64,000 nt of DNA. It comes from Planctomycetota bacterium. GTDB lineage: Bacteria; Planctomycetota; SZUA-567; H5-PLA8. The DNA is taken from positions 160,001-224,000 of the forward strand of contig JBBRPR010000002.1 of the NCBI GenBank assembly GCA_038227875.1, written 5' to 3'. The position numbers and the translations under genes are program-made. This document shows positions 48,489 to 58,031 of this stretch, in pieces; the first letter of the stretch is position 1, and every line of letters starts with the position of its first letter. The notes beneath the pieces were generated by a model that was given only the letters and a program-made list of their open reading frames with translations, was not told where the DNA came from and did no database searches.

Positions 48489-50207
48489 TTACCTTATAAT
48501 CCGGGCGCGGGACGGTGGCCATGCAATAAATGAGGCCCGCCCCACTAAATTCTCGCGCGGCACAAACCCCCACACGCGCCCATCAGAGGAAGACGGCGAA
48601 TTGTCGCCGAGCATCAAATAATATCCCTTCGGAACCGTGGCGTCGTAGCGCCCGTCCTCGTCAATGCTGCGCAAGTTCTGCTGGTTGCTGGTGATGGAGT
48701 TTCGATCCGTGCGCCAGCGGTCTTCGCGTTTGAGCTGCATCCACTTCGTATTTTCGAACTGCGGCTTGATCATCGAGGTGTGATGAAGGTCGCGATAAAG
48801 ATCCAGTTTCGTCACGCTGCCCTTGAAGCCGTCGAAGCGGACATGCGCCACGTTGTCGATGCCTTCGACCACCGCGCCGGGAATTTCGAAGTCGATCAGC
48901 CGCCGCTCGACTTCAACGCCGTCGAGCGATGCGATCACCGTCGCATCAACATAAGCCAGCGACAGCTTGTGTGCGCCCGGGCTGAGCGTCGTGGCTTTGG
49001 TCACCGGATGCACGGACGCCGTTTCCGCCGCAGCCGCGCCGCCGATCGTCCAGGACGCGCAGTGCAGCGAGTTGCCCGCTTCGATCGTGATCGTGCCGGG
49101 CGTCTGGACGTCGAGGTCCATGTCGATGCGCAGGTCGCCGACGGTCTTGTCGCCGCCATAGAAAAACTTCGCGCTGCCGGCCGTCATGATTGGACCGGAA
49201 GTGGCGTCGATGGAAATGGGAAACATCACCTGCTTGCAATTGGGACACTGCACGCCTTCCCACGTATGGAAAATGTAGGAAGTGATGTTCTCCGACTTTT
49301 CGTTGGGGTCGCGGAAGAGCGTGCCGTCGTGGCTTTTCAATTCGGGCAGATGCGCCGCGGGACAATCCTTGTGCGTGAACGGCCAGCGCCCCTGTTTCAA
49401 ATAAACGTTGCTGACGCGGTAGAGGTAATTCAAATCCACTTTGGCCGTGCCGTCGAGCACCACGGACTTCGCTTTCCGCTCGATCCCCGGCGTGCCCGTG
49501 TTCGCGCCGCTCCACGGAAACGAAATCCGCGCGCGCTCGTCTTCCGGCGCATCCTTGTAGACATCGCCGGCCCAGGCCATCGCCACGGGATACCACAAGA
49601 TCTCCTGCACTTCCGGATCGACCTGCCATTTGCGGATGATCTTGTAGACGTCCTTGCCTTCAGCCTCGGTCGCTTTCTCGTCGCGCAGCCAGAGGTCTCC
49701 GCCGGCGATCTTGATGTGATCGCCCGGCAGTCCGCAGAGGCGTTTGATGTAATTGATCTTCTCCGATTTTCCCGACGCCGAGCCGCCGGCCCAATCGGTA
49801 TCGTATTGAAATACGACGACGTCGAAACGCTGCGGCTCACCCGCGACCGCAGTGCGCGCGTACGCCAGTCCAAATGCCAACGCAACACCAAAGAAGATCA
49901 GCCCGCCAATAATCCGCGAGCGCCAGCGCAAGTACGACCGCGAAGCGAAGAACCCCACGAGAATAATAACCAGCGCGCCCGCGCCAATCGCCAGAGTCAT
50001 TCCCGGCGCCGCGTAGGCGAGCTTGTTGGTGAGGATGCGATCGCCGTAATCTTCGTGCCCAAACAGCGTCGGCTCCATCGACCCCGACGGAATCTTGAAC
50101 GGCTCAGCGATCAGGAACCGCCCATAAAGAATCGCCGCAATCAGGAGCACCAACGCAAACGTGGAGTCCCAGAAAGGCGCGGATTTGGAGTCATTATTGT
50201 CGGTCAC
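48489..50207 (-). CDS. lepB: Signal peptidase I with large insertions
   Basis: PFKIPSGSMEPTL, RFDVVVF, NYIKRLCGLPGD, GDNSPSSSDGRVWGFVP; follows lepA. Confidence 0.92.
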   Translation of the reverse strand: MTDNNDSKSAPFWDSTFALVLLIAAILYGRFLIAEPFKIPSGSMEPTLFGHEDYGDRILTNKLAYAAPGMTLAIGAGALVIILVGFFASRSYLRWRSRIIGGLIFFGVALAFGLAYARTAVAGEPQRFDVVVFQYDTDWAGGSASGKSEKINYIKRLCGLPGDHIKIAGGDLWLRDEKATEAEGKDVYKIIRKWQVDPEVQEILWYPVAMAWAGDVYKDAPEDERARISFPWSGANTGTPGIERKAKSVVLDGTAKVDLNYLYRVSNVYLKQGRWPFTHKDCPAAHLPELKSHDGTLFRDPNEKSENITSYIFHTWEGVQCPNCKQVMFPISIDATSGPIMTAGSAKFFYGGDKTVGDLRIDMDLDVQTPGTITIEAGNSLHCASWTIGGAAAAETASVHPVTKATTLSPGAHKLSLAYVDATVIASLDGVEVERRLIDFEIPGAVVEGIDNVAHVRFDGFKGSVTKLDLYRDLHHTSMIKPQFENTKWMQLKREDRWRTDRNSITSNQQNLRSIDEDGRYDATVPKGYYLMLGDNSPSSSDGRVWGFVPRENLVGRASFIAWPPSRARIIR

Positions 50208-50225
50208 TGAGTGGCTCCGAACAAA

Positions 50226-50327
50226 TCATCACTCATCATTCATCACTCGTCATTCAGTATTCAGTATTCAGAATTCAGTTTTCGACATTCGACATTCGAC
50301 ATTCGACATTCGACATTCGACATTCGC
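50226..50327. repeat. Composite heptamer ladder ending in (TTCGACA)x6, between lepA and lepB
   Basis: Continuous 7-nt period: tcatcac tcatcat tcatcac tcgtcat tcagtat tcagtat tcagaat tcagttt tcgacat... Confidence 0.9.
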
Positions 50328-50328
50328 G

Positions 50329-52152
<1,824 letters not shown>

Positions 52153-52948
52153 TTGGATTTCTGTTTTTCTGCGTTTAATGAAACGCGCCCGGCCAACAGC
52201 CGGGCGCAACGGAAAACATTAACTCTACCCGAAGACCCACCGGAATGCCATAGCGCGTCTTGCGATTGCGTCCTCTCCCCCTGTGCGAATCACAAAGAAG
52301 AACTAGTGTCCCCCTCGTTTGAAGTCTGCGCCCATCGGCAGATGTCGTCCATGCAGCTTGCACTCAAGAGAGGGTGCCACTTCGTCTCGCCGTTGAGACC
52401 CGTGCGAGAGAGACCGGGGTGAGGGGATCTGCGTGGATCGTCAAAAGGCCCACTGCGTTTGCAATTTGGACCCCTGACGTACGTCTTGCAATCCAACCGC
52501 TGGAGTGTGCCACTGGTGGCTCGACCACCAGTGTCGACTTCACGAAGGAGGCTGCCAGTTCGATGCGCTCCGATCACGCGACTTCTCTCCTTTGGTGGAG
52601 AGAAGGGAAGCCGAGCGATTTTGAGTCCCGGCGTCAGACCGTCCGCCCCAACCGGGGCAAAATCTGAAAGCCAGGGGCAACGCCCCTGGAATTGACACCC
52701 GTGATTTTCAAAAGCTCTGAAAGAGCGAAATGCCGCCACCGATCCGCGAAACAGGACGATGTCTAATAAGGGTTGCGCCCCAGTCTGGAGCACCGCGCCA
52801 AACCAACCCGCACGGCCCCCGCCCGCCAACCATCGCTCTCGTCTTGCTCCGGAAGTTGGGTGCCATGCGTCTGAGGCCGTTTTCAGACGCATGCGTCGCG
52901 AATTGCACTTTAAGCGCGACTGTGGTCACGCCAGTATACAAATTTGAG

Positions 52949-55900
52949 TCAATAGTATTGCATGACTACATTGAAGCCGTCTTTAGGATTTCCCATTACA
53001 TAGAGCCTTCCAGAGTCCCCGAACATCCATCCAGCTTGATCGTTGGAAGGTATTTGAACAACCAAGGCCTCTTCGCTCTCCACATTTTGAATCCAATTCG
53101 CCCAGCCACCAAGCTTCAAGCCAGGCGACGGTTCCGCTCCCCAAATACAGGTTTCGTTTCTCACAGGCGCTTGCGGTAGTCGCGCGTCAAATTCCAAGTG
53201 CAGTAAGTCCCGCAGTTCGGACCATATTGGTAATTCGTCATGGATTACCGGCTTCAAAGTTAGCCTGCGTCGAGATTGGCTTGGTTCGGGTGCTCGGCCG
53301 GTCTGTTCACAAAACTGTTCGAGGCCGTCCGCAATATTTAACAATTGTACGATCGGACGTGTCGCGGAGTGTTGTTCCCACCAATCGTCACTCCAGAAAA
53401 TGGTCAGCAGCGATCCCGGCGGCGCGTCAAATGGAGCGGCACCGGCGGCCACGGCAGGATCAAGCGGGAGCTGCGCGACAAATCGAAGTCGCACATCGTC
53501 GCTGCACGGCCATTCGAAACCTATGGGAAGCCATGGCAATTTTCCCCATGCGCCTTCGGTGGGTGAAGGTGGGTCTGTAGTCCATACTGGTTCAAATATG
53601 CACGCTTTTCGCCTGCACGATTGGACCGCTAAGTTGATTTCCTGCTCCGCGTCCTTTGTGCTGCCACCTGGTGCCGAAGGCGCTGGGACTAACTTGTATT
53701 TCTCTTCAAGACACGACTCGCCACTCTCAAGCTGGACCAATTCCGCGGGTGGTAATTCTTCCGTCCGCCGGAGCGACCCGCTTCCGCCAACGAGCAGTCC
53801 TCGCGGTGTTTCAAAGTGCGCCGTTTCGGCGTTTACCACCGACCGGGCTAGAGACGATAAAATCTCGCTTTCGCCCGCGTCGAGCCACGACGGACGCGGA
53901 TTGTACGGAACGACGCGCACGTTGCTCCGACAAAGTTCTTCTGCTTCACCACAGGCCGCCTCGGTAAGCGGCCGGTGAATGACGACCGCCTGCGGAATTG
54001 CCTTCTGTACTTCCAGTGTATGAAATGCCAGCGGCGGCAAGCTTACGACATCGCCTTCGCACGGGCGCGGTAACAACGCGACGAAGCCAGACGCCTTTTC
54101 GGCGGTGATCAGCAAAGGCCTGCCGGGCGGTGCTTTCAACTTGGTGAGGATTCTGGAGGGAATCAGCGCTGTTCGTTCTTCAATTCGCTCCGACATGACG
54201 ACTGCAGATCGCGCGCTAAAATCGACACGCTTTTCCTGCCAATCATTTCCTGCATGCCCGCACAGAAGACGGCTTATATCGACCAGTCGTCGTCCCTCAC
54301 TGAGCTGCATGGTTTTTTCGCTGAGCAACGAGTTTGCAAACAATCCGTCGCATACCAACTGCAATTCACGCTGTTCATTGATCAGAATGACCTGTGGTGC
54401 TTTGAGCTCAATCAATTTCTTCAGGCGATTGTTGCGATTGATGACAATTCGGTAGAGCTCATTCAAGTCGGAGGTCGCCCAATTGCCGCTCTGAAGTTGT
54501 ACCAGCGGTCGAAAGTCGGGTGGAATCACCAGCACATGTTGTTGAATGATGCCGAGCAGCCCCTTGCGGACCCCGAGATCTACGCCCTCAAGCAAAGCAC
54601 GAATCGCAACTGCCCCGATTCCCAAATCTTGAATACCAACGCCGGTAACAGGGTTCTTCGCATCTGCAAATTCGAACGCTCCTGATTGCGTGCGAATCAC
54701 CCGCTGTTTGCATTGCACTACATTTTCGATGTCGGCTTTCGAAAATTTCAAGGGCGCCAGAAGTTCTTCAAGAACGGAGGGTGTATCCATGCGCCAGAAG
54801 AATGGCACAATCGGTTGAGCGAGCGCAATATGGCCGAATCGATTGCGTCGCGCGCCGCGCTCAGGCCCAAATATACGTTCACAAAACAATGCGTCTGGAG
54901 TTGGTTTGAGTGTGGCATAGTTGAGCGTTTCCGGCCGCCAAACTTCGCCCGATGAACGCGCCAGCAATTCGTCCCGAGTCGCGACTCGAACCGTGACTTC
55001 CACGTGATCGCCGTCGCGCTCCAGCGAGGGGTATAGGCCCATGCCCCACAGGTACACTTCCACCTGCCTCAGACTCTCAGGCATTCCTGCTTCGGGAAAT
55101 CCTACATTGCTGCGATAGGCCCCGCGTAAGAGTTTGCGGCTACTCATATCATCGCATTTCAAGCTAGTGAATTCGGTCACGTTGGCCATCATTCCGCGCT
55201 CGCGCAGCCAGCGGATTTGGCTCACTGACACTTCAAGTCCACCACTGCGCGACTTGCCGCCCAATGGTCGGCAACTGATCAATGAATATGGGCCGATTCC
55301 CCGTGCATGCAAGAATTCACTCGCCGTGGTTTCGGCTTTGCCAATCGCCAGGCGTCGGACCTCACCTGCTTTCAGGCCGGCAAGTCGTGTTCCCAGTGCG
55401 TCAAGTTCAATGTCAACGCCGTCACCGAGCGATACGTCAACGCGAGACACAATGCCCAATTCTGATTCACCCCAGATCAGGACATCGCCAGGATTGATTT
55501 CGCGCTCCAGAACGAGACGAACTTTCACTTTGCCGCGAATCTTCGCCGAAGTAGTGCGCGGAAGATCGCGGCGCGAGAGCACCTCCACGGTGTCAATCTT
55601 GGAGCCGTTTGATCCGGGAGGAGCTTCCAGACTATCGCTGCATACCCGCTGCATGCCTGACGGAACCTTATCCTCTCCCTTGAGGGCGTGGCGGACGTAT
55701 ACCACGCTGGCGAGCACGTCGCCTTCATTGACGAGTGCGCCCTGCGGCATACAGCCCCGGTCATCCAGTTTTGCAAGCTGCGCGGCGGTGAGAAAAGGAT
55801 TGTCCTTTGCCAGACGATGAAATCCATATTCCGTCTTCGCCAGCTCCACTTCGCAATCAAACTCATGCTTGGACGCAAAAATTCGGGCGTCAGTGATATG

Positions 55901-56011
55901 CGGCGACAGATGAATTCCCGTTCCTGCGGCTCGCGTCGATCCACGAACATTCAAGTAGGGGCAACCATTCAGAGAGTTGTTTGACAAGTTTACTAAGCTG
56001 GCGATTCGCAT
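52949..56011 (-). CDS. Divergent RNA polymerase beta(C-terminal)/beta-prime(N-terminal) fusion lacking the catalytic motif, with C-terminal DUF1963/YwqG-like domain
   Basis: RpoB-like AQLAKLDDRG...VNEGDVL, HARGIGPYSLISCRPLGGK, GMPES. RpoC-like SSGEVWRPETLNY.TLKP..DALFCERIFGP, PPDFRPLVQL..G.WATSDLNELYR.VINRNNRLKKL, KRVDFSARS. C-terminal FVAQL, KLGGWANWIQ, WMFGDSG.LY. Start set at the ATG after GAGGG; the frame is open to 56119. Confidence 0.85.
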   Translation of the reverse strand: MRIASLVNLSNNSLNGCPYLNVRGSTRAAGTGIHLSPHITDARIFASKHEFDCEVELAKTEYGFHRLAKDNPFLTAAQLAKLDDRGCMPQGALVNEGDVLASVVYVRHALKGEDKVPSGMQRVCSDSLEAPPGSNGSKIDTVEVLSRRDLPRTTSAKIRGKVKVRLVLEREINPGDVLIWGESELGIVSRVDVSLGDGVDIELDALGTRLAGLKAGEVRRLAIGKAETTASEFLHARGIGPYSLISCRPLGGKSRSGGLEVSVSQIRWLRERGMMANVTEFTSLKCDDMSSRKLLRGAYRSNVGFPEAGMPESLRQVEVYLWGMGLYPSLERDGDHVEVTVRVATRDELLARSSGEVWRPETLNYATLKPTPDALFCERIFGPERGARRNRFGHIALAQPIVPFFWRMDTPSVLEELLAPLKFSKADIENVVQCKQRVIRTQSGAFEFADAKNPVTGVGIQDLGIGAVAIRALLEGVDLGVRKGLLGIIQQHVLVIPPDFRPLVQLQSGNWATSDLNELYRIVINRNNRLKKLIELKAPQVILINEQRELQLVCDGLFANSLLSEKTMQLSEGRRLVDISRLLCGHAGNDWQEKRVDFSARSAVVMSERIEERTALIPSRILTKLKAPPGRPLLITAEKASGFVALLPRPCEGDVVSLPPLAFHTLEVQKAIPQAVVIHRPLTEAACGEAEELCRSNVRVVPYNPRPSWLDAGESEILSSLARSVVNAETAHFETPRGLLVGGSGSLRRTEELPPAELVQLESGESCLEEKYKLVPAPSAPGGSTKDAEQEINLAVQSCRRKACIFEPVWTTDPPSPTEGAWGKLPWLPIGFEWPCSDDVRLRFVAQLPLDPAVAAGAAPFDAPPGSLLTIFWSDDWWEQHSATRPIVQLLNIADGLEQFCEQTGRAPEPSQSRRRLTLKPVIHDELPIWSELRDLLHLEFDARLPQAPVRNETCIWGAEPSPGLKLGGWANWIQNVESEEALVVQIPSNDQAGWMFGDSGRLYVMGNPKDGFNVVMQYY

Positions 56012-56224
56012 AGAGCCCTCTTCGCGCAATAGTCCCATCGTGCGTTGAAGATGGGCTAGTCGATATTGACTTGCTACGCTGTTGTCGCCCACTTTTAGCT
56101 TAAAATTATGAACTCGCAACCCCGCAGCGTTCGCGAAGTCTCTCAGGCCGACTGAAGTGTGTCGATCCTACTTCAGACCATAGGCAAGCCCCGACACGCG
56201 CCCCCGTACCTTTCTGCACATCAT

Positions 56225-56600
56225 GTATTATAAAATCTTTTTTACTAAAAGTACAGAAAACACTTGACTTTTGCGTTTCTCGACCGCTTATATACTATAG
56301 AGAAATATGAAAATCGTCCGTTACGGCCTCGCTTCGCTACCTGCACATAAAGCCCCGGCCACCTAATCTTGGGCCTGCCCTCAAACGCGTTCCAGCGGCT
56401 CCTGAGCGCCTCCACAGTCCAAACCCGAATCCAATGGCCACCCGCACGCGGAATGCTCCACAGCCCCGAGAAACGCGAGGAAACGGCTGCCACCTAGTGC
56501 ATCTACTGAGAATCCAGTATTATAAAATCTTTTTAACTAAATTCAAAGAAAACACTTGACTTTTGGGTTCGAGAGTTGCTTTATATTATAGGAAAATATG
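56225..56600. repeat. Two direct copies (56225-56309 and 56517-56600) of an ~85-bp AT-rich promoter-like unit
   Basis: Both read gtattataaaatcttttt.actaaa...agaaaacacttgacttttg...tata.tatag..aaatatg; 292 bp apart. Confidence 0.85.
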
Positions 56601-56897
56601 CGATGCCCCGTCTCATGCCAAACCGCGCTCTCTTTACGTATTGGCGCCCTTGGTGCCATGTGATCGCAGCACCGACCAAGCCTCGCTCTACCACCACAAC
56701 CCTACTCAATGTGCACCCAGGAAGGAGACCCCAACCCTGTAACATTTGGTAACATTCTGTAACAGTGCACGGAGAATATCCCATCACGCCAAATCACAAT
56801 TCCGCACGCGCCGGTGCCCAACTAATCCGCAATCCGCAATCCGCAATGCAGTTAATCCCCGTCCGCGTATAATCGAAAGCCTCTGCGAGGAGAATCT

Positions 56898-58031
56898 ATG
56901 CGCCCGTTTGCCCTTCTACTGCTGAGTCTACTCTCCCTGTCCCCGGCCTGGTCAGCGGACACCGAACCCAACACGCCTGAAGTTGCCGCAAAAGTCGCCG
57001 AGGCGGCGAAACAACTTCCAGAACAGTACACCAATCGCCCGCTGCTTTTCCTGCCGATGCTCGACGCCCCGAAACAATTGAAGGGCGATCTCTCCGATCC
57101 GATCTGGGAGAAGGCCACGCCGTTCAATCTGCAGAGCATGGTCAAAGGCGAACTGGTGCCGCCGAAGTTCGTGACCGCGGCGCGGATGTTCTGCACCAGC
57201 GACGCCATCTACCTCGGTGTGAAGTGTGAAGACCCCGACCCCGCCAACGCCACCGTCAGCAATCCGGCCGCGTGGCAGAACGACTCACTGGAATTCTTCC
57301 TCTTCCCCGGCGAGAGCTGCAAAGGCGGGAAGCTTTACTACCAGATCTGCGTGGATGCCTCGAAGAAGATCGAGTTCTACCACACGCACCTCTACCCGAA
57401 GAATACGTTCGGCGGCCGCAGCGAACCGTGGAAGCCGGCGGGGGTCGAATGTGAAATCACCAAGGACGCCAAAAGCTGGACGCTCGAATTGAAGATCAAG
57501 TATTCCGACATGGTGCTGCCTGATGAAGTGAAAGAGAAGCGCGCGATCTGGCGCATGGACCTCTTCCGCAACCGCGTCGCGCGCGGCAACATTTCCGCGC
57601 AGAGCATGGCCTGGGCGCCGACGGACGCGACCGGCAGCTACCATCTCTGCGGACGCTACGGCTACCTGCTTCCCGCCGCGCTGGTGAGCACCGACGTGAT
57701 CGGCACGGTGCTGGCCAACGCCAAGGGCGCCACGACGACCGACACGCCGCCGGCGCAGGAACTCTCGCGCGAAGTCACCGAACTGATCGGGCGGCTGGGC
57801 AACGACGACTACAATGTCCGCAACACCGCGATGCTCAACCTCAACACGATGGTCGAAGAGAAGAAGCTCGGCCGCTTCATCCAGACGCAGTTAAAGAAAA
57901 CACTCTCGGAAACGGAGGACTCGGAAGTAAAAATGCGCTCGATCAAGGTCTTGAAGACCTGCTATTCGTGGCTCAATCCCGACGACGACACGCCGCCGGT
58001 CAACAACAACGACTGGCAGGCCAAAGAATAG
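56898..58031 (+). CDS. Secreted protein with CBM9-like sugar-binding domain and HEAT-like C-terminus
   Basis: Signal peptide; LKGDLSDPIWEKA, DAIYLGVKCED, WQNDSLEFFL, WTLELKI. Confidence 0.8.
   Translation: MRPFALLLLSLLSLSPAWSADTEPNTPEVAAKVAEAAKQLPEQYTNRPLLFLPMLDAPKQLKGDLSDPIWEKATPFNLQSMVKGELVPPKFVTAARMFCTSDAIYLGVKCEDPDPANATVSNPAAWQNDSLEFFLFPGESCKGGKLYYQICVDASKKIEFYHTHLYPKNTFGGRSEPWKPAGVECEITKDAKSWTLELKIKYSDMVLPDEVKEKRAIWRMDLFRNRVARGNISAQSMAWAPTDATGSYHLCGRYGYLLPAALVSTDVIGTVLANAKGATTTDTPPAQELSREVTELIGRLGNDDYNVRNTAMLNLNTMVEEKKLGRFIQTQLKKTLSETEDSEVKMRSIKVLKTCYSWLNPDDDTPPVNNNDWQAKE

Follow-up and report, generated by a model that had tools for sequence, protein, structure and literature searches.

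The large subunits of bacterial RNA polymerase (RNAP), β and β′, carry between them a flap, two double-psi β-barrels and a clamp with its lid and coiled-coil. In the natural β-β′ fusions (NF007172 and NF011417) the two subunits form one polypeptide, which is complete, retains the NADFDGD motif and serves as the working polymerase of the cell. The single-chain polymerases P23-45 gp96, P74 gp62 and QDE-1 also hold two adjacent double-psi barrels and are active, with their aspartate triad in place; YonO is likewise a single-chain two-barrel polymerase. To our knowledge, the large subunits of cellular RNAP have no described paralogue that is non-catalytic. The subject of this report is a gene in a 64,000-nucleotide stretch of DNA from a Planctomycetota bacterium (assembly GCA_038227875.1, contig JBBRPR010000002.1, positions 160,001 to 224,000 of the forward strand; hereafter the window). 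Its 1020-residue product, P0001, encoded on the minus strand at 52949..56011, is a single-chain, non-catalytic pseudo-core of bacterial RNAP, whose sequence descends from the 3′ third of rpoB and, for rpoC, from the 5′ third together with the extreme end.

P0001 shares with the canonical β and β′ of its own genome (P0268 and P0269) the flap, both double-psi barrels and the clamp with lid and coiled-coil, at 30-34% identity in the blocks that align. It differs from them in being one chain, in lacking ∼770 N-terminal residues of β and ∼800 internal residues of β′ (the bridge helix, trigger loop, funnel and jaw), and in the addition of a TYPP domain. The order of parts across its junction is that of the natural β-β′ fusions but, unlike them, it is neither complete nor equipped with NADFDGD; NF007172 scores it at 163.3 bits against a cut-off of 5372, and it has 1020 residues against ∼2900. 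The single-chain two-barrel polymerases resemble it in their adjacent barrels, whereas they lack the bacterial clamp coiled-coil and the flap. In a wide fold search the closest match to residues 287-744 of the P0001 model is the clamp domain of 3QQC, a laboratory construct from an archaeon in which the N-terminal clamp of the large subunit is reportedly joined to C-terminal clamp pieces and is said to suffice for binding a NusG homologue; unlike P0001, it has no flap, barrels or TYPP domain. The C-terminal 235 residues match the TYPP proteins YwqG, Tsr4 and PDCD2. Anti-sigma factors may share an outcome with P0001, for which binding is predicted, in that sigma would be held off the core polymerase; the known ones have unrelated folds that cover the core-binding surfaces of sigma, whereas P0001 would bind as a copy of the core surface itself. 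The family has branched off the two-barrel multisubunit polymerases as a group of pseudoenzymes and is apparently undescribed. Literature searches aimed at such a fusion, or at a non-catalytic large-subunit paralogue of a cellular RNAP, found no description, and the source databases name family members only 'hypothetical protein'.

One chain from two subunits

The initial annotation, made by a model from the letters of the DNA, described one uninterrupted open reading frame of ∼1020 amino acids, and this is what the gene holds. The minus-strand frame 52949..56119 is open for 1056 residues when begun at the upstream in-frame TTG (56119) and ends in a stop codon at 52949-52951; the ATG at 56011, which yields the 1020-residue product, is the likely start because five of seven aligned homologues begin at the same column. 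Ordinary, separate rpoB and rpoC genes are found elsewhere in the genome, on contig C15 (1568 and 1673 bits), so the fusion gene is an extra copy.

The β-derived third comprises residues 1-330 (55022..56011, minus strand, as are all features of the gene given below) and contains the first β-barrel strands, the flap, a degenerate double-psi barrel and the C-terminal clamp piece of β. That this third follows the C-terminal region of RpoB, as first proposed, is evident from several kinds of comparison. Pfam RNA_pol_Rpb2_6 matches residues 43-189 above its gathering score (E 1.7e-7), and BLASTP against the genome's own β aligns residues 44-139 with β 796-898 at the start of the flap (30% identity) and residues 234-332 with β 1171-1269, up to the C-terminus (34% identity). 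The full-length family TIGR02013 (rpoB) scores the protein at 57.1 bits against a cut-off of 801.15. The structure model places residues 1-331 on residues 715-1382 of the β chain 6j9e_C (Z 13.3, 322 aligned), and the flap domain (residues 44-170, 55502..55882), which is also seen in the alignment with the own β, has its fold in the model although the flap-tip helix is missing: residues 47-169 superpose on the isolated flap domains 3tbi_B and 3woe_A (Z 14.2 and 13.5, with 120 and 123 residues aligned).

The chain passes from β into the N-terminus of RpoC at about residues 331-338, which agrees with the junction near nucleotide 55010 given in the initial annotation. The β′ N-terminal clamp region (residues 331-604, 54200..55021) matches Pfam RNA_pol_Rpb1_1 above its gathering score (E 4.6e-29), and residues 329-643 align with residues 40-420 of the own β′ at 34% identity. 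A sequence search of the PDB pairs residues 338-385 with β′ 8-55 and residues 486-628 with β′ 309-453. TIGR02386 (rpoC) gives 169.4 bits against a cut-off of 963.5, here too short of a full-length match. Within this region lie the lid and clamp coiled-coil (residues 489-562, 54326..54547), which are near-canonical in their motifs, form the clamp fold of β′ and correspond to the docking site of sigma region 2 and NusG in canonical RNAP. Short rpoC-like contigs of other organisms cross-match this block at the DNA level. The β′ double-psi barrel follows (residues 597-700, 53912..54223), with model residues 597-695 matching known double-psi barrels (Z ∼10-11, ∼80 aligned).

The AlphaFold2 model, built from a 47-sequence family alignment, is confident, with a mean predicted local distance difference test score of 88.8, a predicted template modelling score of 0.79 and disorder only at residues 753-770. 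Residues 331-747 superpose on bacterial β′ over ∼400 aligned residues (Z 27.9, 2.8 Å). The wide fold search, which covered 48,161 chains and was independent of Foldseek, returned 3qqc_A, archaeal Spt4/5 bound to the RNAP clamp domain, as its best match (model 287-744, Z 22.8, 279 of 381 aligned). Since the structural alignment runs from E. coli β′ residue 16 to residue 1356, the end of the core at about residues 701-747 is the counterpart of the extreme C-terminal clamp strand of β′ (the segment 701-750, 53762..53911), in which PRGLLVGGSGS corresponds to IIPAGTG of the own β′. According to the model, then, ∼800 internal residues of β′ are gone, yet all pieces of the clamp are kept. The single-chain two-barrel polymerases P23-45 gp96, QDE-1 and P74 gp62 align over model residues 1-∼700 (Z 9-10), which indicates that the two barrels are adjacent as in a polymerase. 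The modelled architecture is a flap, two juxtaposed dead double-psi barrels, a complete clamp, a flexible linker and a TYPP domain.

The linker (residues 751-785, 53657..53761) is poorly conserved and holds the disordered stretch of the model. The TYPP/DUF1963 domain behind it (residues 786-1020, 52952..53656) is YwqG-like: Pfam PF09234 (DUF1963) matches residues 825-1011 with 35.7 bits against a cut-off of 23 (E 1.5e-8), which places the domain in the TYPP group, and the model superposes on YwqG (1pv5_A, Z 13.6, 213 aligned). PMC4275035 gives GGxP motifs and a conserved glutamine as TYPP hallmarks, and predicts a chaperone-like domain with a channel for extended peptides. At the GGxP positions P0001 has KLP and GGWA and keeps the conserved glutamine, while its relatives have GGLP or GGWP..WIQ and AQLPLD. 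Eukaryotic TYPP relatives are described, in PMC7736825 and PMC6648895, as dedicated chaperones of the ribosomal protein uS5. A fusion of TYPP to a DksA/TraR zinc finger is recorded in PMC4275035 for another TYPP family, and an RNAP-derived partner is not among the TYPP fusions in section 9 of that paper; the literature found on DUF1963 and TYPP proteins does not mention the fusion described here. This domain, the C-terminal clamp strand of β′ and the loss of the β NFED pair described below are the three features that the initial annotation had not recognised.

Loss of the catalytic apparatus

The losses were surveyed by aligning the family with 26 canonical β and 114 canonical β′ sequences. 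In the β-derived part the acidic pair of NFED is gone, and in the GDK/RHGNKG region of the barrel (residues 175-186, 55454..55489) P0001 has GDVLIWGESELG where the 26 canonical β sequences have GDKMAGRHGNKG, the erosion noted at the outset. In the β′ barrel the dead catalytic loop (residues 665-682, nt 53966-54019) carries TLEVQKAIPQ at the position of NADFDGD (residues 665-674, nt 54019-53990), just ahead of the conserved HRPL at 679-682, again as first read. The NADFDGD string is missing from 47 of 47 aligned proteins of the family's group A and 37 of 37 of its group B, both defined below. Rpb1_3, Rpb1_4 and Rpb1_5, which cover the bridge helix, trigger loop and other C-terminal modules, have no Pfam match in P0001, and the structural alignment skips from β′ ∼500 to ∼1320-1356. 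No examined member retains any of the three catalytic signatures. With the bridge helix and trigger loop missing as well, P0001 is not a polymerase and is unable to polymerise, as the initial annotation had maintained.

The losses extend to most of the loops that contact nucleic acid. The β′ zinc-binding domain had been described as excised, and a 29-residue gap against the four-cysteine domain of the own β′ indeed falls at about residues 385-387 (nt 54851-54859), and all of group A has a gap there; a second large gap against the own β′ falls in its 165-270 insert. The flap-tip helix (PEEKLLHAIFG), also reported lost, is deleted or unconserved in the alignment at about residues 105-122 (nt 55646-55699), and the model has no helix at residues 108-119. 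Two further segments of β are deleted (∼907-1018 and 1093-1150 in the numbering of the own β). In β′ the rudder/switch-2 motif KGKQGRFRQNLLG is gone with only KRVD.S kept, so that most of switch 2 is lost, and the dock segment (β′ ∼407-443) and NRAPTLHR are gone as well.

A family of dead fusions

The fusion has homologues with the same architecture. A word-indexed search found six such relatives (54%-34% identity, E 0 to 6e-109) before the first canonical β′, which appeared only at ∼1e-40; the closer relatives are P0002 (54%) and P0003 (60%). An exhaustive HMMER search of 1.84 billion representatives returned 257 proteins at E ≤ 1e-30, and true fused β-β′ proteins of 2246-2812 amino acids were also retrieved in the family search. 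A family hidden Markov model scored 271 proteins, of which the 64 best, all above 500 bits, are taken as group A. The same build is thus present in at least 64 retrieved proteins, down to ∼25-30% identity, with or without the TYPP tail, and NADFDGD and the zinc-finger pattern are both absent from all 64. Group A has a long form of ∼960-1056 residues and a short form of ∼710-820 residues that ends just past the clamp strand; the two are interspersed on the tree, and DUF1963/TYPP is present in 23 of the 47 aligned members.

Group B (37 aligned proteins) is the less reduced sister group of group A. Its members are mostly ∼700-960 residues long, span the β/β′ junction, and in most of them the zinc finger is kept, as are a larger part of the dock and a flap tip that is still recognisable (EE.L....FG). 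Four of the 37 (P0223, P0208, P0242 and one other) end in an RNAP α C-terminal domain and retain zinc finger and flap tip besides. P0224, P0235 and P0267 are ∼1270 residues long, with an N-terminal extension of ∼420 residues that has no Pfam match and, in P0224, no hit in the ESM Atlas; P0224 and P0235 are sister to group A on the tree.

Of the group A and group B proteins, 8 of 47 and 10 of 37 have no anchor motif and are left out of the FastTree tree, as are 48 of the 70 canonical rpoC sequences taken from loci. All canonical β′ sequences on it form one clade (support 98), with the own β′ inside a Planctomycetota clade (support 99), and the dead fusions lie outside. The donor lineage is not readable from the tree because the canonical clade excludes the fusions, whose long branches also make their placement unsafe.

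The family is thinly spread. A sample of 401 genomes from the phylum, in which only two candidates were scored per genome, gave five matches at E ≤ 1e-70, namely two family members (in this genome and in G104) and three frames of rpoC length. Within its own class the gene is held by 1 of 62 genomes, this one, and by none of the 16 others of its own family.

Conservation and selection

The lid and clamp coiled-coil had been singled out as the best-preserved block, and the family alignments agree. Over the lid and clamp helices the mean pairwise identity is 56.0%, and 32 of 74 columns reach a conservation of at least 80%; in the other RNAP-derived segments identity is 22-46%. By segment, the identities and the columns that reach the same mark are 45.9% and 9 of 35 behind the zinc-finger site, 40.3% and 12 of 55 at the β′ N-terminus, 36.7% and 19 of 97 at the β C-terminus, 31.2% and 15 of 96 in the β′ barrel, 29.9% and 14 of 127 in the flap, 27.1% and 6 of 63 in the β barrel and 18.4% and 1 of 35 in the linker. 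At the tip and on the face of the coiled-coil, R529, A538, P539, I542, E546 and Q551 are at least 90% conserved. We take these to be E. coli β′ R278, the A287-P288 tip, I291, E295 and Q300, which are presumably the exposed coiled-coil positions that bind sigma-70 region 2.2 and NusG/RfaH.

The initial annotation argued for selection rather than decay, and the wider family supports it. Many independent assemblies contain intact homologues, which are 740-1056 residues long and 25-54% identical. Six independent DNA loci have frames of 784-1020 codons without a stop, deletions are in-frame and at domain boundaries, the model is confident and conservation is very uneven; for these reasons the family is regarded as conserved yet fast-evolving, under selection and not decaying. 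The six members compared at the DNA level are only 30-43.5% identical, so synonymous sites are saturated for an estimate of the ratio of non-synonymous to synonymous substitution.

Genomic surroundings

The G+C content of the gene region is 0.547-0.564, against ∼0.59-0.64 in most of the window and ∼0.60 for the entire window. The same strand carries lepA and lepB downstream of the gene, and on the other side lie a CBM9-like secreted protein, a ROK kinase and atpD. The gap of ∼740 nucleotides between the fusion gene and lepA (52210-52948) holds a single open reading frame of 200 amino acids without a family match, and an Rfam scan of 49500-57500 found no RNA family. A strong terminator-like hairpin on the minus strand (52184-52208; 11 pairs, nine of them G-C, then a T-rich tail) sits just upstream of the probable true start of lepA. 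Between the start of lepB and the stop of lepA is a block of heptamer tandem repeats (50226-50326), in which runs of TCATCAC and ATTCAGT come first and are followed by a terminal run of 6.6 copies of TTCGACA with 100% matches (50281-50326). The signal peptidase I homologue at 48489-50207 (minus strand, 572 amino acids) matches Peptidase_S26 in two stretches, which points to a large insertion. Short identical pieces of the fusion gene are present in three other metagenomes, and no RNA dataset is listed among the holders of the gene.

No conserved operon partner emerges, and the neighbours differ at every locus compared (the window, L007, L093, L095, L096 and L008). They include an S49 peptidase, PFK and a convergent ECF sigma gene (L007), a convergent LRR protein (L095), and a tad/cpa pilus cluster with a sigma-54 activator (L096). 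In L093 (9783-13561, contig C94 of G104) the stop of a DUF6940 gene immediately precedes the start of an 821-residue short-form member, and two Ser/Thr protein kinase genes, of which one encodes an FHA domain, flank them; a DUF6940 counterpart was not found in the present genome, but the same search matched none of 14 control genomes, so this says little. The group B member at L008 (9791-12492), which keeps its zinc finger and lacks the aspartate triad, lies in two overlapping frames of 841 and 170 amino acids, a split due either to a frameshift or to an assembly error.

What the pseudo-core may bind

Since the surface that meets sigma and the NGN domain is kept canonical while the nucleic-acid-contacting and catalytic parts have been discarded, we infer that P0001 acts by binding. 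The reading we lean towards, which comes close to an even chance without reaching it, is a pseudo-core that holds sigma (or NusG) and buffers, sequesters or chaperones it, as the conserved surface positions and the fold suggest. Titration of sigma or NusG, or baiting of phage proteins, had been put forward at the outset and would likewise be predictions from this surface and fold. The near-canonical lid and clamp coiled-coil would hold a factor that docks there on the real polymerase, most likely a sigma factor of the sigma-70 family through its region 2, and alternatively a NusG-type NGN domain. The TYPP domain has to figure in any mechanism of the long form, and from its flexible linker it would grip an extended peptide belonging to that factor or to another protein. 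The factor would thereby be kept away from the core polymerase, in an organism with well over 100 sigma factors: the genome has 136 matches to sigma-70 region 2 at E ≤ 1e-5, none of them within the window. Many of these matches sit in open frames of 500-1300 amino acids, which suggests fused sigma factors. The α C-terminal domain, zinc finger and flap tip of the sister group tie the family to the partners of transcription initiation. Prediction of a complex between clamp residues 280-750 and region 2 of the primary sigma factor (residues 1-100), run without controls, gave 0.02, 0.41 and 0.18 against a mark of 0.32, scores that weigh on neither side.

Several observations weigh against the sequestration of sigma. 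The flap-tip helix and the zinc-binding domain, which both touch sigma in the holoenzyme, are lost in group A, including P0001, so that full docking of sigma is impossible and only the contact between region 2 and the coiled-coil is left. None of the five group A loci with usable flanks (a count that leaves out L094, which is too short, and L008, which belongs to group B) has a consistently adjacent sigma, anti-sigma or NusG gene. Conservation of the coiled-coil could stem in part from folding constraints inherited from β′. The patchy distribution and low local G+C look like those of an accessory, possibly transferred gene, and would fit conflict systems too.

A related proposal, which we consider unlikely, is that the dead mini-polymerases accept sigma to form pseudo-holoenzymes that store it or sit on promoters and do not transcribe. 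Flap tip, zinc finger and the fused α C-terminal domain would then also take part in the contact with sigma in relatives that are less reduced.

The fusion may instead have taken on a role that has nothing to do with polymerase ligands, such as that of a nucleic-acid-binding or scaffold protein in which the coiled-coil is only structural. Outside the coiled-coil most of the protein has diverged strongly, and half of group A lacks the TYPP domain while other members carry different additions, as if the core were a generic platform. This too is improbable: the basic motifs that contact nucleic acid (switch 2, rudder, NRAPTLHR) were the very parts lost, and the solvent-exposed positions of the coiled-coil remain canonical.

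That the ligand is an elongation factor of the NusG/Spt5 family or a NusG paralogue with a specialised role instead of sigma, titrated or delivered by P0001, is quite doubtful. The best match of the wide fold search is a clamp domain in complex with Spt4/5, the coiled-coil tip (A538, P539 and I542) is among the most conserved positions, and the loss of flap tip and zinc finger would be immaterial to an NGN contact. Bacterial NusG, however, also touches the β lobe or gate loop, which P0001 lacks, no NusG-like gene lies beside any member at the loci inspected, and the α C-terminal domains fused in the sister group point to initiation and not to elongation.

Service as a decoy or sensor in defence, directed at phage or competitor proteins that attack the flap or clamp of the polymerase, would fit traits typical of conflict genes (patchy distribution, lower local G+C, variable neighbourhoods and fast evolution) and fold matches that include complexes of phage proteins with the β flap (3tbi, T4 gp33; 3woe, P23-45 gp39; 6j9e, P7). 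The protein has no effector domain and no defence-island context, PADLOC returned no match for ten proteins (P0001, four relatives and five neighbours), and the most conserved surface is the sigma/NusG site rather than the flap; we hold this role to be very unlikely.

Derivation from adjacent genes and the loss of every catalytic motif might have pointed to a chimeric assembly or to a duplicated rpoB-rpoC junction in decay. Both are ruled out by homologues of the same build (the 64 best-scoring proteins, from independent assemblies), and also have against them the intact 3060-nucleotide frame, the confident model, the in-frame deletions at domain boundaries and an independent assembly of contigs from the probable source run, which covers the gene from end to end with 0 differences and without a joint.

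Implications

In this family nature has cut out the module that is used to study the docking of sigma and NusG/Spt5, keeping the surface and removing the chemistry, and has combined the clamp-flap module with a peptide-binding domain or with the α C-terminal domain. Should another ligand prove to be the right one, the protein would still offer a compact, soluble and naturally evolved clamp-flap scaffold for structural work and a probe for clamp ligands. Were the pseudo-holoenzyme proposal true, the family would represent a hitherto unrecognised layer in the control of sigma competition, in bacteria with 100 or more sigma factors, and would be the first pseudoenzyme to stem from a cellular multisubunit RNA polymerase. 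If P0001 does bind sigma, it would act as an anti-sigma or sigma-buffering protein by mimicry of the core enzyme, and would bear on the competition for core polymerase in organisms with more than 100 sigma factors.

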